Source of the DNA: Oceanispirochaeta sp.
Lineage (GTDB): Bacteria > Spirochaetota > Spirochaetia > DSM-2461
Reading direction: 5' to 3'
DNA: 64,000 nucleotides
Assembly (NCBI GenBank): GCA_963663385.2
Contig: CAXXXD010000002.1
Coordinates: 1,088,001-1,152,000 of the forward strand
In this document: positions 12,639 to 17,732 of the stretch, piece by piece
How the letters are laid out: each line of letters starts with the position of its first letter
Numbering within the stretch: the first letter of the stretch is position 1
The notes under the pieces: generated by a model
Told to the model about the DNA's origin: nothing
Databases searched by the model: none
What the model saw: the letters and a program-made list of their open reading frames with translations, nothing else
Made by a program: the position numbers and the translations under genes

Positions 12639-13322
12639 ATGAAAAAGAATGATTTAATTGCCCTTTCCGAGGTCTCTTTGTTTAATGGCCTTGATATCCT
12701 GGCTCTGGAGCGTTTTTTCCGGAACCGGGAGGAGTATCGGATCAGGCAGTTCCGAAAAGGAGAGTTTCCCGGTTTCCAGGGGGACAGCTATGACAGCCTG
12801 CTCTTTTTATTAAGAGGCAGCGCTGCCGCTTCCATGGCGGCTCCCAACGGGAAAGTTGTCCGTCTGGAAACCCTGCAGGCTCCCTGTGCTGTGGCTACGG
12901 CGATACTGTTCTCCAGTCAGCAGTCCCTTCCGGTTACCCTGGAAGCCCTGGAACCCCTGGATTGCCTCTTTATAAGCAAGGCGACTGTTCTGGAACTGAT
13001 GCATGAATTCCCGGCTCTTCTGGAAGCTTATCTCAAAGATAACGGGGATCGTCTGCTTCTTCTGGCTGAAAAGATACGTCTGTTTCAATTCAAATCCCTG
13101 CGGCAGAAAATAATCAGCCATTTTCTGGTTCAGGCCGACCGGCAGAAGAGCCTTGAAATCAGGCTTGTTTACTCCCGTGAGGATATGGCTCAGCTGATGG
13201 GAGTGGCCCGTCCCTCTCTGTCCCGTGAAATTTCCGCTCTGGTTAAAGAGGGATTGATTACCGTTAAGGGGCGGCAGGTCGTTATTGCCGATAAACAGCT
13301 GCTGATGCAGGCCCTGCGATGA
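12639..13322 (+). CDS. Crp/Fnr-family regulator (HcpR-like)
   Basis: cNMP-binding fold and HTH SREDMAQLMGVARPSLSRE; hcp is nearby. Confidence 0.85.
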   Translation: MKKNDLIALSEVSLFNGLDILALERFFRNREEYRIRQFRKGEFPGFQGDSYDSLLFLLRGSAAASMAAPNGKVVRLETLQAPCAVATAILFSSQQSLPVTLEALEPLDCLFISKATVLELMHEFPALLEAYLKDNGDRLLLLAEKIRLFQFKSLRQKIISHFLVQADRQKSLEIRLVYSREDMAQLMGVARPSLSREISALVKEGLITVKGRQVVIADKQLLMQALR

Positions 13323-13336
13323 CCGCGTACCTCCTC

Positions 13337-13414
13337 GACCCCTCTCACTCTCCCCGAAGGGGAGATGCAATTGGAAGGTCGCACCCCTCCCTCCGGAGGG
13401 GGCTGGGGGAGGTC
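13337..13414. repeat. REP doublet (type A 13337-13365 plus inverted type B 13384-13414)
   Basis: Same two-part arrangement as 8501-8630, again between convergent genes. Confidence 0.75.
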
Positions 13415-14391
13415 TACAGCTGAATTCTCAGGTTGGTTGTCATACCCAGGGTCTGGTTGGTAATACCGTAGTTCAGACCGAAGTCAATTTTAAACAGGGG
13501 CAGGTTCAGTCCGGCTCCGCCGAAGAGACGAAGGGCTCCGCCGTTGACATCGGATGAGATAATGACACCTTCATCATCAATTTCAATTCCGGTAGCCGCT
13601 TCAAGCGCCGCGATATCCGTTGCGCTTATTTCGTTGCCGTCCAGAGAGACTGTTCCGTTTGTAATACCGCCGCCGGCTGTTGATACACCGTAGGAGTAAC
13701 CCATTCCGGCGGAAAGGTTGAGTAACAGGAGTTTCTTGCTGACCTGAGCCTTGAAATCAAAAATATTGACACCCCAGTCGAAGATCATATCCGTATCTTC
13801 AATGGCCAGTTCATTCCCGATCACTCCGTTGCTGACATCGGAGATATCCACTTCCTGATCCCCAACGGGAACAACCACTTCGCCCTTCAGGTAGGTATAA
13901 CCCACACCGACCGACAGTTCGGGCAGAACAGGATTTCCCTTCAGTACAGCGTATCGGACATCTCCGCCCAGCATAAGATAGTTCAGGGAGTAGTCTATAT
14001 CCATCAGATCCCTGGTATCCAGAACCCCGATTTTAAAACCCGCATCCATGGGAAGGATGGGGATTCCAACACGGGCATCCAGACTGTACATGGGAAGGGG
14101 AACGCCCAGACTGGAAAGGTCCGTCAGTGTGTCATCTCCGATCAGATCGGAAATATCTTCAAAAGCTGTGGAAGGTATAAATACGGCACCCATGGTAAGG
14201 CCTACTCCGAATCGGGGGAAAATCCCCGTATAGGCATCATTCCAGTTCAGTCCCATTCCGGCCATCAGGGGCAGTGTGCCTGCCACTTCATCGGCGAAAG
14301 ATTCAAATCCGTCCTCCACACCTTCCAGATCATACGCCGTTACGGAAAAAGACATTATTAATAGCAGAAATAGTATTGCTGTTTTCTTCAT
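13414..14391 (-). CDS. Hypothetical exported protein, probable outer-membrane beta-barrel
   Basis: Signal peptide, alternating hydrophobic/Gly strands (LSVGVGYTY, FKIDFGLNY) and terminal strand NLRIQL. Its RBS is the IS insertion site. Confidence 0.7.
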   Translation of the reverse strand: MKKTAILFLLLIMSFSVTAYDLEGVEDGFESFADEVAGTLPLMAGMGLNWNDAYTGIFPRFGVGLTMGAVFIPSTAFEDISDLIGDDTLTDLSSLGVPLPMYSLDARVGIPILPMDAGFKIGVLDTRDLMDIDYSLNYLMLGGDVRYAVLKGNPVLPELSVGVGYTYLKGEVVVPVGDQEVDISDVSNGVIGNELAIEDTDMIFDWGVNIFDFKAQVSKKLLLLNLSAGMGYSYGVSTAGGGITNGTVSLDGNEISATDIAALEAATGIEIDDEGVIISSDVNGGALRLFGGAGLNLPLFKIDFGLNYGITNQTLGMTTNLRIQL

Positions 14392-14450
14392 TTTTCACTC
14401 CTATAAAAAGTCAATCATAAGCCTATTAACAAGCTTACAATTGAACCGGA

Positions 14451-15563
14451 TTACCCAGTTTTTACGGCATTGAATGCAGCCGCCTGCATCTTCAAGTACT
14501 TATCATCCGGAACCATCTTCAACGGATCAAAGGGTTCACGGGTTTTCAATATGGAGTACACTACCGTACTCATCTTTCTTGCAGAGGCGATAATACTCGT
14601 GCCGCTGCCCTTGTTCTTCTTCATCGCTCTGTACTTCGTCATGATACGGTAATTGCCAGTCGTTTTCCGAGTTCTAACCATTCCCATAACACACTGAACA
14701 AATGCCGTTCTCAGTTCTACAGCCCCTCTCTTTGTTATATGCCCATGATGAATCGTCTCATTGGAGTTCTGCACCCATGGTACAAGACCGGCATAAGCCG
14801 AATACTTCTTGGCACTGGCGTACCGCTTGATATCATCCGTATAGGCCCTAATAGTCGATGCCGTTATCAATCCGACTCCCGGGATCGTCTGCAATAACTG
14901 TACATCCTCATCTTCCTTTACAAGTTCCAGCAGGACTTTCTCTAACTGCTTGACCTGGTTCGAAACCTGATCTATCGTAGAAAGCAGCGGTTCTATCGCT
15001 TTGGCAGCGCTTCCGAAACTCCTATGGTCCACGAGACCGATGAGGATGCGCTGCCTTTCTTTTTTACTCTGCAGCGCAGCTCTTTTTGTTTCAATTCCAT
15101 ACCCTAGAAGCAGTCCGTGAACCTGATTCTTCAAAGATACGACTGATTTAACAAGGATAGTTCTGGATTTAAGAACTCTACGGATATCCTCACTCTCCTG
15201 AGAACAAAGCTGTGATTCGGGAAGCATATCTTTTTCCAAGAACTCTGCTAGAGTTCTGGCATCATGCTTATCCGTCTTTTTCACTGATTCATTTACAACT
15301 TTGAATTTCAGTGTATTCACAACCACCACCTCAATCCCTGCTAGCAATAGCTTGTTACGGAAGAACCGGGCATTTCCTGTTGATTCCACTGCAGCCCTAA
15401 CATCAAGGCCCTCTTCTGTATAGGACACTGCTTTCTCAAGAAATGCTCTGTAACCGTCCTCAGAGGTCGGATACATTCCTGATTCACAAATGCTTCTATC
15501 ATCACTCAGGAAACAGACTGTTAACTGGGATTTGTGCAGATCCACTCCGATACTCATCTTCAT
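14451..15563 (-). CDS. IS110-family (DEDD RuvC-like + Tnp domain) transposase/recombinase
   Basis: SIGVDLHK, VESTG, KTDKHDA, LQTIPGVGLITA, YAGLVPWVQNS and GHITKRG motifs. Start at MKMSIG after AGGAG. Confidence 0.95.
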   Translation of the reverse strand: MKMSIGVDLHKSQLTVCFLSDDRSICESGMYPTSEDGYRAFLEKAVSYTEEGLDVRAAVESTGNARFFRNKLLLAGIEVVVVNTLKFKVVNESVKKTDKHDARTLAEFLEKDMLPESQLCSQESEDIRRVLKSRTILVKSVVSLKNQVHGLLLGYGIETKRAALQSKKERQRILIGLVDHRSFGSAAKAIEPLLSTIDQVSNQVKQLEKVLLELVKEDEDVQLLQTIPGVGLITASTIRAYTDDIKRYASAKKYSAYAGLVPWVQNSNETIHHGHITKRGAVELRTAFVQCVMGMVRTRKTTGNYRIMTKYRAMKKNKGSGTSIIASARKMSTVVYSILKTREPFDPLKMVPDDKYLKMQAAAFNAVKTG

Positions 15564-15574
15564 ACCTTCGCTCC

Positions 15575-15730
15575 TATTGCCTAAAACAGCGCCTGTACGG
15601 TGAATTGATTCCATTCTCCTATCCGGTCTCGAAGACCATTGAATGTTTCGGTCACGGCTCTTCATTCTCCTGTACGGTCTCGGAGACCAGTAAAAATGGC
15701 GAACAGTAACCTGGCTGTTCTAAACGATGT
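15575..15730 (-). ncRNA. Putative IS110 bridge/seek RNA in the left-end non-coding region (ends approximate)
   Basis: 5' hairpin GAACAG-N8-CTGTTC, then two modules CATT..GGTCT-N3-AGACC..AGGAG-AATG (15663-15698 and 15612-15645) carrying TACAGGAG (target flank) and ATAGGAG (element end). Confidence 0.75.
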
Positions 15731-15737
15731 TTAGAAC

Positions 15738-15746
15738 ATTGTATCA
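15738..15746 (-). promoter_or_regulatory. Extended -10 promoter (TGnTACAAT) in the IS left end
   Basis: The - strand reads TGATACAAT just upstream of the putative RNA, abutting the hairpin TGTTCTAAAC-GAT-GTTTAGAACA (15716-15738). Confidence 0.45.
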
Positions 15747-16033
15747 ATCCACAAGCCTATGAAGACTTTTTATCATTCCTCCTGTAAGCATAAAATTTAT
15801 GCTACTACAAAATTCTACTGTTTTTTTCGGGAAAATTCACGTTTTTTATTCGGAATGAGGGTAAATCCCCTCAATAGGAATTATGCTGCAGAAAGCGGCG
15901 GCTGTGCCGAACAAAAGTCCTGGACCAATTGGTCCGGGATTCTTACTGGTTTGCTTCAAAAAAACGGCTGTTATTCCCAATCATTCCGCAGGATTATAGA
16001 TAATGATAGAAAAAATGCAAAGATGCCGGTGTT

Positions 16034-16062
16034 AAAAAAAAACGGCCCCGCAGGGCCGTTTT
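16034..16062 (-). terminator. Intrinsic terminator of hcp
   Basis: AAAACGGCCC-CGCA-GGGCCGTTTT with a long T-tract on the - strand, 30 bp after the hcp stop. Confidence 0.8.
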
Positions 16063-16091
16063 CCTTAAAAAGACTATTTTCACATAGGGAA

Positions 16092-17732
16092 TCAGGCACC
16101 CATAAAAAGTTTTATATCATCTTCGACTGTACCGATCCCGGCAATGCCGAAGTTTTCAACCAGTACGTTTGCTACATTGGGTGAAAGGAAGGCGGGAAGG
16201 GTCGGGCCCAGGTGGATGTCCTTGACACCCAGGTAGAGCAGGGCCAGCAGTACGATAACCGCTTTCTGTTCATACCAGGCAATATTGTAGCTGATGGGCA
16301 GATCGTTAATGTCGTTCAGTTCAAATACTTCTTTCAGTTTAAGGGCGATAACAGCCAGGGAGTAGGAGTCATTACACTGGCCCGCATCCAGAACCCGGGG
16401 AATTCCGCCGATGTCACCCAGGGGCAGCTTGTTGTAGCGGTATTTGGCACAACCGGCCGTCAGGATAACTGTGTCTTCGGGAATCTGTCTGGCAAAGTCT
16501 GTGTAGTAGTCTCTCCCCTTCATTCTTCCGTCACAACCGGCCATTACAAAGAAACGTTTGATGGCACCGGTTTTAACGGCATCCACCACTTTGTCAGCCA
16601 GGGCGATTACCTGGTTGCGGGCAAATCCTCCGATGATTGTTCCCGTTTCAATTTCGGTGGGAGCTGAGCAGGTCTTTGCCTGAGCGATAATTTCAGAAAA
16701 ATCTTTTACTCCTCCTTCGGCAGGATCGGCGATATGTTTTACGCCGGGGTATCCGGAAGCTCCGGTGGTATAGATCCGGTCTTTATAGCTGTCTTTAACG
16801 GGGGTAATGCAGTTGGTCGTCATCAGGATGGGTCCGTTGAAGGAGGCAAACTCCTTGTCCTGTTTCCACCAGGCGTTTCCATAGTTCCCTACAAAGTGGT
16901 CATATTTTTTGAATGAGGGGTAGTAGTTGGCGGGGAGCATCTCGCTGTGAGTATACACATCCACACCGGTTCCTTCGGTCTGTTTCAGCAGCTCTTCCAT
17001 ATCTTTCAGATCATGTCCGGAAATCAGGATCCCGGGGTTAGTTTTTACTCCGATATTCACTTCCGTGATTTCGGGATTGCCGTAGGATTCGGTATTGGCC
17101 TTATCCAGTGCCGCCATTACGGAAACACCCTTCTCACCTGTTTCCATAGTGAGGGCCACAAGTTCATCCGCACTCAATGAATTGTCCAGTGTAGCCGCCA
17201 GTCCCCTGTACATAAACTTCAGAACCTCTTCGTCCTGTACTTTCAGGTGGTCCGCATGGCAGGCATAGGCCGCCATCCCTTTTAGCCCGTAGATGATCAG
17301 TTCCCGCAGGGAGCGGATATCCTCATTTTCTGTTGAAAGAACTCCCACAGTTCCGGCCTTTTCTTCCATGGCTGCGCCTGTAAGGGTAACGAAGGTAGCG
17401 GCGTCATGGAGTTCTGCCGGAACCAGGTCTCCCAGTTCTTTTTTCAGGCTGTCTCTGAGAGCGATATACTCGATGATGGTTTTTTCAAATACCGCACTGT
17501 CGAAGTTGGCATTGGTAATAGTCATAAAAAGACCGCGCATAATGGCCTGGTCTGCTTCGGGGAGGGCCTTGCCCTGAGCTCTGGCGGGGCCGGCTACCTG
17601 GGCAATCCCTTTCAGGGTATAGATCAGAAGATCCTGGAGGACCGCGGTTTCCGGAGTCTTTCCGCAGACTCCCCTGATTTCACAGCCGGTTCCTTTGGCG
17701 GCTTCCTGACACTGGTAACAGAACATATTCAT
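16092..17732 (-). CDS. hcp: Hybrid cluster protein (hydroxylamine/NO reductase)
   Basis: MFCYQCQE...GC...[29 protein letters not shown] and WYEQKA motifs. Start at MNMFC after AAGGAG. Confidence 0.97.

Follow-up and report, generated by a model that had tools for sequence, protein, structure and literature searches.

A Shine-Dalgarno-targeting IS110-family insertion sequence in Oceanispirochaeta with a candidate bridge RNA that carries the target motif

We analysed a stretch of 64,000 nucleotides of contig CAXXXD010000002.1 (assembly GCA_963663385.2, forward-strand positions 1,088,001 to 1,152,000) from an Oceanispirochaeta sp., hereafter called the window, in which an insertion sequence of the IS110 family lies on the minus strand immediately in front of a gene. 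Coordinates are those of the window, and its features are given on the minus strand. The element occupies positions 14398-15778 and is 1381 bp long, counted from the G of GAATG at its left end to the last G of ATAGGAG at its right end, a length that includes one copy of AGGAG. At the left junction the host sequence ...tgcttACAGGAG is followed by GAATG-ATAAAAAGTC, with AGGAG at 15783-15779 as part of an ACAGGAG at 15785-15779. At the right junction ...GACTTTTTAT-AGGAG (14402-14398) is followed by TGAAAA and then by ATG (14391-14389). The element is therefore placed between ...TACAGGAG and the TGAAAA-ATG of a gene for a DUF6588 protein recognized by Pfam, whose 325-amino-acid (aa) open reading frame (ORF) runs from 14391 to 13414 (13414-14397 with the spacer TGAAAA at 14397-14392). 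ACAGGAG (15779-15785) is the host Shine-Dalgarno motif and constitutes the left half of the target, as read from the junction and from the flanks of other copies. The ATAGGAG now found in front of the host gene is supplied by the right end of the element, and its AGGAG acts as the Shine-Dalgarno motif of that gene.

Inverted repeats of 10 bp are located at 15773-15764 (ATAAAAAGTC) and at 14412-14403 (GACTTTTTAT), each 5 nt inside its end of the element. The left end (15764-15778) is made up of GAATG and the sub-terminal repeat, and has a -10-like motif, TG-n-TAAAAA. The right end (14398-14444) contains a long weak hairpin (14444-14411), a -35-like TTGACT (14414-14409), the repeat and the terminal AGGAG. 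Just inside the inverted repeats there are also direct repeats, ATAGGCTTGTGGATTGA in the left end (15742-15761) and ATAGGCTTATGATTGA in the right end (14411-14427). The recombinase gene (14451-15563) is predicted to encode a protein of 370 aa starting at MKMSIGVD, and it matches PF01548 (74.8 bits), PF02371 (69 bits) and the NCBIfam model NF033542, "IS110 family RNA-guided transposase" (228.2 bits against a cut-off of 140). The protein aligns to the solved recombinases of IS621 (8wt6, E 9e-16) and ISCro4, with E values of about 1e-15. In the IS621 alignment the catalytic E (AVESTG versus IEATG), the D..D pair (KTDKHDAR versus KTDTVDAR) and the Ser (VQNS versus RYES) are aligned, and the first catalytic D (GVDLHK), which is outside the aligned stretch, was placed by eye only. 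About 215 nt of non-coding DNA lie to the left of the recombinase gene and about 50 nt to its right.

The gene upstream of the element encodes a hybrid-cluster (prismane) protein, hcp, and three genomes of the same genus keep the synteny of hcp and the DUF6588 gene with a short intergenic gap. At the orthologous site of one of them (G010) the sequence is GCTTCAGGAGTAAAAAATG, which has one AGGAG, a spacer and ATG, and no element. An uninterrupted GGAG-type motif, mostly AGGAG, was found before the start codon with no element in all nine genus homologues examined. This is the empty site that the original prediction, made from the letters of the window, had reconstructed, and the two junctions and the inverted repeats that it reported were also found as described when re-read on the minus strand. 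The host gene is now 1.38 kb away from its upstream region, with motif and spacing restored. The intergenic region that has been cut off from the gene (15786-16091) contains the hcp terminator, a promoter-like TTTGCA-17-TATAAT (16021-15993) and a TAGAAT, these being matches to consensus only. The same prediction had proposed GTGAAT-N17-TAGAAT as the promoter of the host gene. A consensus scan did not call this promoter; what did hold is the TAGAAT hexamer alone, which in G010 is conserved at the same distance from the ribosome-binding motif.

A search of the genome (5.31 Mb in 4 contigs) found ten copies of the element, all of 1381 bp, 99.7-100% identical, and each with a 422-aa open frame free of stops. 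All ten are in one orientation at nnnAGGAG, and insertion is site- and orientation-specific, without target duplication. AGGAG ends the left flank of every copy, as ACAGGAG in eight, GCAGGAG in one and AAAGGAG in one. On the other side, 6-8 nt separate the right-end ATAGGAG from the ATG of a same-strand ORF of 98-689 aa, again in all ten, and each of these ORFs has a Pfam match (alpha/beta hydrolase, GFO/IDH/MocA oxidoreductase, URO-D, zinc alcohol dehydrogenase, chemoreceptor, H+-pyrophosphatase, acyl-carrier subunit, GNAT acetyltransferase, GDPD and DUF6588). As background, a start-codon context, defined as a site 4-10 nt ahead of an ATG that opens at least 90 codons, was found for 118 of 1444 free ACAGGAG sites (8.2%) and for 1135 of 15301 AGGAG sites (7.4%). 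The site pattern is far beyond chance. Contigs from public sequencing runs collapse the element to a 1386-bp repeat with a depth 8-13 times that of its flanks, which agrees with about ten copies. The near-identical copies with their open frames and the raised contig depth suggest that the element is active.

We then considered relatives of the element. A protein search returned 3513 relatives at E <=1e-10 among 8000 scored candidates, named in their sources only as "IS110 family transposase" or "transposase". Among 40 related genomes, close relatives (75% protein identity) were present in G013 (six copies) and G009 (one copy) only, with weaker or fragmentary matches in G020 and G027. These seven copies, the ten described above and 76 loci from species-representative genomes were used for the comparisons that follow. 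Seven of the 76 loci (L089-L093, L102 and L107) were left out, and degraded or truncated loci gave no left flank (L064, L066, L085, L088 and L094) or no right flank (L085-L088, L094 and L109). Relatives with 51-79% identity are found on long contigs labelled Spirochaetia, Treponemataceae, Leptospira, Desulfobacterales and delta proteobacterium; others are on short contigs binned to candidate phyla, Dehalococcoidales and Dysgonomonadaceae, a binning that we do not trust.

In this clade an ATG was found 3-10 nt downstream in 58 of the 60 insertions with a readable right flank, most often at 6 nt (34 insertions), then at 5 nt (10) and 7 nt (7). The rule applies to all six copies in G013 and to the single copy in G009. 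The two exceptions are L063, where the ATG is at 14 nt after extra GGAG repeats, and L084, where both guide and flank have (G/T)AGAG. The pattern extends to a much more distant relative from Lentisphaeria (about 33% protein identity), in which the left flank is (A)AAGGAG and the right end, CATAGGAG, has an ATG 5-9 nt behind it in 10 of 11 copies; the guides of this relative, GGAAAGGAG and UAUAGGAG, are in the same order. The original prediction had inferred that the element specialises in translation-initiation regions and had proposed examining whether other copies lie away from AGGAG or from start codons. All ten copies in this genome proved to be at AGGAG, 6-8 nt upstream of a co-oriented start codon, and the inference is supported by the clade and by the Lentisphaeria relative as well. 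By the covariation given below, the demonstrable reading, through one strand of the target loop of the guide RNA, covers nnnAGGAG and not the start codon itself.

The 220-nt region 5' of the recombinase gene folds better than 200 of 200 shuffled sequences (z = -3.6). It holds two words separated by a hairpin, TACAGGAG (sense orientation) and TTTTTACT, which is exactly complementary to AGTAAAAA. A second, similar module carries ATAGGAG and CATTC. This region was aligned from 31 distinct relatives, and the RNAalifold consensus has two internal loops, each around a hairpin. A structure of 22 pairs, formed by this consensus and an outer stem, was tested. Its positions pair in 97.4% of alignment cells, compared to 22-44% when the partners are slid by 1-3 columns; eight pairs have changed on both sides, a number reached by 4 of 500 shuffles; and the covariation score is 0.271 versus 0.162 for the control, reached by none of 500 shuffles.

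The target-binding loop of this structure (15650-15711) is closed by an outer stem (15711-15701 with 15660-15650) and surrounds a hairpin at 15688-15676, with a 5' strand GCCAUUUUUACU at 15700-15689 and a 3' strand GUACAGGAGAAUGAA at 15675-15661. We read the 5' side, GCC / AUUUUUACU, as a linker and a nine-base left target guide ending in CU, and the 3' side, GU / ACAGGAG / AA / UGAA, as a linker, a right target guide ending in AG, a handshake and a linker. The strand lengths equal those given in the text for the target-binding loop of IS621 (PMC11208158). In the frame of IS621, whose strand and orientation conventions we took from the text of that paper rather than its figures, the core would correspond to the AG ending AGGAG, read as CT on the strand that lies opposite to the recombinase gene. 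The donor-binding loop (15611-15649) has a 5' strand GAAACAUUCAAU, a hairpin at 15637-15625 and a 3' strand GGAUAGGAGAAUGG. Its CAUUC is the complement of the left-end GAATG, and its AUAGGAG is a copy of the right-end tip. The longest ORF of the recombinase gene has 404 aa (14451-15665) and the database cluster representative 387 aa, both starting upstream of the MKMSIGVD start that is common to relatives. These longer starts are probably mis-called, because they would run through the donor loop of the RNA. An Rfam search of 13000-17000 at E up to 1 gave no bridge-RNA family, its lone match being a chance one to RNAI (22 bits against a gathering score of 47) on the hcp terminator.

If the loops are guides, their sequences should change with the DNA next to each element, and for three of the four strands this is what was found. 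The 3' strand of the target loop (UACAGGAG in the element) was compared with left-flank positions -8 to -6 at 60 sites, giving 127 matches versus 67.8 +/- 10.2 after permutation; with one vote for each of 28 elements the result was 56.8 of 84 versus 36.3 +/- 3.4, and in both cases none of 5000 permutations reached the observed value. By position, matches were found at 55 of the 60 sites for -6, 44 for -7, 28 for -8 and 8 for -9, the last being at chance level. Thus UACAGGAG goes with TACAGGAG, CAAAGGAG with (C/T)AAAGGAG and UUCAGGAG with ATCAGGAG. The 5' strand of the donor loop matched the first five left-end bases in 152 of 160 positions over 32 elements (132.7 +/- 2.8 permuted; 0 of 5000 reach), with the pairs CAUUC/GAATG, CGUGC/GCACG, CAUGC/GCATG and CAUAC/GTATG. 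The 3' strand of the donor loop, AUAGGAG, copies the right-end tip GACTTTTTATAGGAG, which is nearly invariant throughout the clade. These three strands are supported by their DNA partners, and the fourth, the 5' strand of the target loop, is not. The AGGAG word is read by the RNA.

These results lead us to conclude, with a probability of roughly 80%, that this is an active IS110-family insertion sequence guided by a bridge RNA that is set to the Shine-Dalgarno motif. Family membership, the RNA structure, the site rule and the covariation of three guide strands with their DNA partners are shown by the data above. In the mechanism that we propose, about 165 nt of the 5' non-coding region form the two internal loops, each with its conserved hairpin. 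In the target loop, the 3' strand GU-ACAGGAG-AA-UGAA would pair with the strand complementary to nnACAGGAG through a 7-nt right target guide ending in AG, set between a 2-nt linker and a 2-nt handshake with a 4-nt linker, lengths like those of IS621. The donor loop would read both ends of the element, the right tip as AUAGGAG and the left-end GAATG through its complement CAUUC. Recombination would take place at the final AG of AGGAG, CT in the opposite strand, leaving the host ACAGG-AG at the left junction and joining the element's ATAGG-AG to the host spacer and ATG, and AGGAG would be regenerated at its original distance from the start codon. A circular intermediate would be expected, in which the right-end TTGACT and the left-end TG-n-TAAAAA may form a junction promoter, with a spacing of 17 nt (judged by eye) once the ends abut through a single AGGAG.

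AGGAG is found on both sides of all ten copies, and it could be argued that this pair is a 5-bp target-site duplication produced by staggered cleavage. We regard this as very improbable, since the right AGGAG follows the element's own TAT in every case, regardless of the left flank (TAC, AAC, GGC, CAC or TAA). Moreover, a duplication would give identical copies, whereas in relatives the two sides can differ (left versus right, TAGAG and AGGAG in L084, TGGAG and AGGAG in L069, AGGAG and AGGGG in L050), and the donor loop of the RNA itself contains AUAGGAG. In L084, with a left flank ending in TAGAG and TATAGGAG as its right end, the junctions share AG alone. The final AG (15780-15779 in the left target half) comprises the only bases always common to both sides, and for this reason we infer that it is the two-base crossover core. 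AGG is given separately by the target and by the element end, and the ribosome-binding motif is rebuilt as a result. The opposite side of the target is less clear, and some evidence counts against our conclusion. The 5' strand of the target loop (AUUUUUACU) shows a weak excess of matches to the right flank, both by site (187 of 413 versus 161 +/- 10.7, P 0.006) and by element (77.5 versus 70.0 +/- 3.9 for 26 elements, P 0.027), and when two registers and then twelve offsets were scanned none stood out (z 1.5-2.3 over seven adjacent ones). A plus-strand site outside the window, C3:575191, with ACAGGAG-TAAAAAT, is a perfect 14-nt match to both guides and is unoccupied and not before a start codon, while sites matching only 2-3 of the seven right-flank positions are occupied. 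The start-codon share of free ACAGGAG sites does not exceed 15% at any threshold of right-flank guide match and is about 20% when at least six of positions +1 to +7 are A or T; under strict AT filters over three windows, 17 of 35 free sites are of start type (about 49%), 12 are within ORFs and 6 are intergenic. Finally, contigs of four DNA runs over 14000-16100 showed no empty allele, circle or tandem junction, the contigs breaking at the repeat. A bridge RNA that encodes the whole translation-initiation region, with the 5' strand (AUUUUUACU, after a conserved C) pairing with AG-TAAAAAT(G) and so reading the A-rich spacer and even the ATG directly, has in its favour the exact complementarity of TTTTTACT to AGTAAAAA, the placement of TTTTTACT at the position of the IS621 left target guide, of 9 nt and ending in the core, two of ten sites that match at six of seven positions, and the overall match excess by site. 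We consider it unlikely. Besides the absence of any preferred register and the vacant perfect site, the signal by position is confined to +4 and +5, and AGGAG and ATG are 3 to 9 nt apart, with variation both among the copies of an element and from one element to another, which a fixed pairing cannot follow. The match excess looks like shared base composition rather than positional pairing. The related idea that a conserved CAU of the RNA reads ATG was ruled out by the same variation in spacing and by the consensus RNA, in which, for 29-30 of 31 sequences, the CA of CAU is paired to the UG of AAUG, so that its conservation is structural.

A stronger competitor, to which we give a real but minority chance, is that the element reads its 7-8-nt AGGAG word at any site and that the start-codon context arises wholly afterwards, in-gene insertions being lost and the remaining AGGAG words with an AT-rich tail being almost all real ribosome-binding sites. 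Consistent with this, 1218 of the 1444 free ACAGGAG sites are inside ORFs of at least 120 aa, and true non-start intergenic sites are rare: of 16 free AT-rich sites classed as intergenic and not of Shine-Dalgarno type, at least three precede TTG-initiated ORFs of at least 113 aa and six more have an ATG at 3 or 11-13 nt (the lengths of the ORFs at these six were not checked). The lack of register-specific covariation in the right-flank guide also fits, and copies that differ by up to 0.3% imply that there has been time for purging selection. On the other hand, occupied sites beat free start-type sites in the predicted right-flank match (mean 3.9 of 7 versus 2.34 of 7, Mann-Whitney p 0.001), and they are far more AT-rich on the right (90% at +1 to +7 and 72% over 30 nt, compared to 65% and 63% for free start-type and 53% and 52% for in-ORF sites), which implies a bias beyond AGGAG. 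Loss would also have to be nearly complete: at the occupancy of Shine-Dalgarno-type sites, the 127 free in-ORF sites that are AT-rich should by our arithmetic have received about 20 insertions, and none was seen, nor was any in-ORF insertion found among the 60 of the clade. Explanations of the start-codon context from sequence only were not sufficient alone (at most about 20%, or about 49% under strict AT filters). Our preferred reading, a bridge RNA set to AGGAG, is thus most likely completed by two further components, a preference for AT-rich right flanks and the loss of gene-breaking insertions, the start-codon context being produced by all three together. Once gene-breaking insertions are removed, nearly all of the remaining sites are translation starts, and purifying selection against such insertions probably supplies much of the exclusivity.

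Comparison with characterized elements places this one between two groups, at least as these are described in the texts of the papers cited. Elements of the IS110 group carry the guide RNA upstream of the gene, in the left end, and have sub-terminal repeats of 2-3 bp (PMC11208160, PMC11187229); in IS621 and ISEc21, which belong to it, the bottom-strand match precedes the top-strand guide in the RNA (PMC11208158, PMC11187229). The IS1111 group (ISEc11, ISPa11 and ISKpn4) has its guide RNA downstream of the gene, within a long right end; its repeats are of 7-17 bp and the top-strand complement comes first (PMC11187229, PMC11208160). Circle-junction promoters with a right-end -35 and a left-end -10 have been reported for IS621 and ISEc21, whose targets are a REP element and an IS3 transposase gene, respectively (PMC11208160, PMC11208158, PMC11187229). 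The present element resembles these two in its DEDD/RuvC-like and Tnp domains, in a guide RNA upstream of the gene with two loops each around a hairpin, in a probable CT core on one strand, in the lack of target duplication and in the placement of its -35-like motif (right end) and its -10-like motif (left end). The left-end location of the RNA is that of the IS110 group in general. Unlike the IS110 group, it has a sub-terminal repeat of 10 bp and a different guide order. Relative to IS621 as described in the text the order is reversed, with copies of the left flank and of the right tip on the 3' side of the loops and the complement of the left end on the 5' side, which, in the frame of IS621, turns round the orientation of DNA reading with respect to the recombinase gene. 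Its long, well-matched guide is on the 3' side, again unlike IS621, with the other guide poorly matched by natural sites, and it targets a translation signal rather than a REP element or an IS3 transposase gene. The length of the repeat and the precedence of the top-strand complement over the bottom-strand match are as in IS1111, from which it differs by its upstream RNA and by a right end with only about 50 nt of non-coding DNA. The element fits neither published subgroup cleanly and has mixed IS110 and IS1111 features, and this architecture may mark how the two subgroups arose from one another.

Insertion between the Shine-Dalgarno motif and the start codon, upstream of genes, has been described for IS900 and IS901, IS110-family elements of Mycobacterium avium (Plague 2010, PMC2942039). 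That paper cites Doran 1997 (on IS900 targeting signals of translation initiation) for IS900 and Inglis 2003 for IS901. Compared by this description of the target only, the present element is alike, with its crossover at the last two bases of AGGAG. The hosts are different, being Actinomycetota for IS900 and IS901 and Spirochaetia, Desulfobacterota and Lentisphaeria here. In IS900 the transposase lies antisense to the host gene, and the hed ORF uses host signals. Here, unlike IS900, recombinase and host gene run in the same direction, and the motif is rebuilt by the right end of the element. In the main text of neither 2024 discovery paper did we find a Shine-Dalgarno sequence or a translation start named as a target; the supplements, listing the targets of many IS110 elements, may already contain this clade. 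In literature pairing IS110 with ribosome-binding-site terms we found nothing closer, and the papers covered gave no bridge-RNA explanation of the IS900 target. The target class is therefore not new; what is new is its basis in a bridge RNA, the sense orientation with restoration of the motif, the mixed IS110 and IS1111 features and the wide spread. For a type of insertion reported since 1997 this offers a mechanism: the bridge RNA contains the motif, and over 28 elements motif and flank change together. The natural bridge systems described here also appear to lean mainly on one extended guide, which echoes the "half-match" activity reported for IS621 and bears on the prediction of off-targets when bridge recombinases are used for genome writing.

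Going further, we can sketch a broader scenario, which we offer tentatively. The element would belong to a deep and abundant IS110 branch with a bridge RNA hard-wired to AGGAG, the one non-coding word common to most bacteria, and would read a half-site, the other guide being nearly idle. Perhaps the right end evolved to mimic the target half (TATAGG-AG versus nnnAGG-AG), in which case each insertion would be a scar-free swap of ribosome-binding sites. It is equally speculative that the branch is a natural intermediate of the IS110 and IS1111 architectures, combining a left-end RNA, a long sub-terminal repeat and a reversed guide order. If true, AGGAG would be a host-independent safe landing pad, and this would explain the presence of the branch on long contigs from Spirochaetia, Desulfobacterota and Lentisphaeria.

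Rather than an adaptation, the restoration of the motif may be a side effect of the similarity between donor and target. Immediately upstream of the restored AGGAG there is the right-end hairpin followed by CUUUUUAU (14403-14444), and a hairpin at the same place, with differing stem sequences, is present in most of 29 distinct right ends, as seen in minimum-free-energy folds without a formal count. With its U-run it looks like an intrinsic terminator, one that would stop run-around transcription of the circle and could also silence the host gene. Copies of the element ahead of genes need not be annotated as gene disruptions, and, given the terminator-like hairpin, the expression of the host gene cannot be taken from the motif alone. 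A clear intrinsic terminator, a GC-rich hairpin with a T-run, also follows the hcp gene (16030-16060) and is the origin of the chance RNAI match.

The recombinase gene has a ribosome-binding site of its own, ATAGGAG (15577-15571), which is the same word as the right-end tip and has one mismatch to the target guide. The flank to the right of it (CGAAGG, within 15561-15577) is GC-rich and may guard the element against self-insertion.

Several loci among the relatives are of interest in themselves. In a Spirochaetia metagenome-assembled genome (MAG; OY776510.1, loci L034-L047 and L052), 10 of 15 left flanks are T-rich and then have TATAGGAG (for example ACTTTTTATAGGAG), resembling the right-end tip of the element more than the guide UUUAGGAG, and in L038 a left-end-like fragment lies about 108 nt upstream. 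These T-rich-flank insertions may adjoin remnants of earlier copies. L084, on a 132-kb Leptospira MAG contig, is the sole relative with a guide that has GAGAG and not AGGAG; its flank is TAGAG, and no start codon follows its right end. Its guide and flank make it a natural case of retargeting away from the ribosome-binding motif. In L062, a second, partial right end of 29 nt follows the right end, downstream of the recombinase gene, and only then come the host spacer and ATG. This double right end may be a relic of a tandem or nested insertion.

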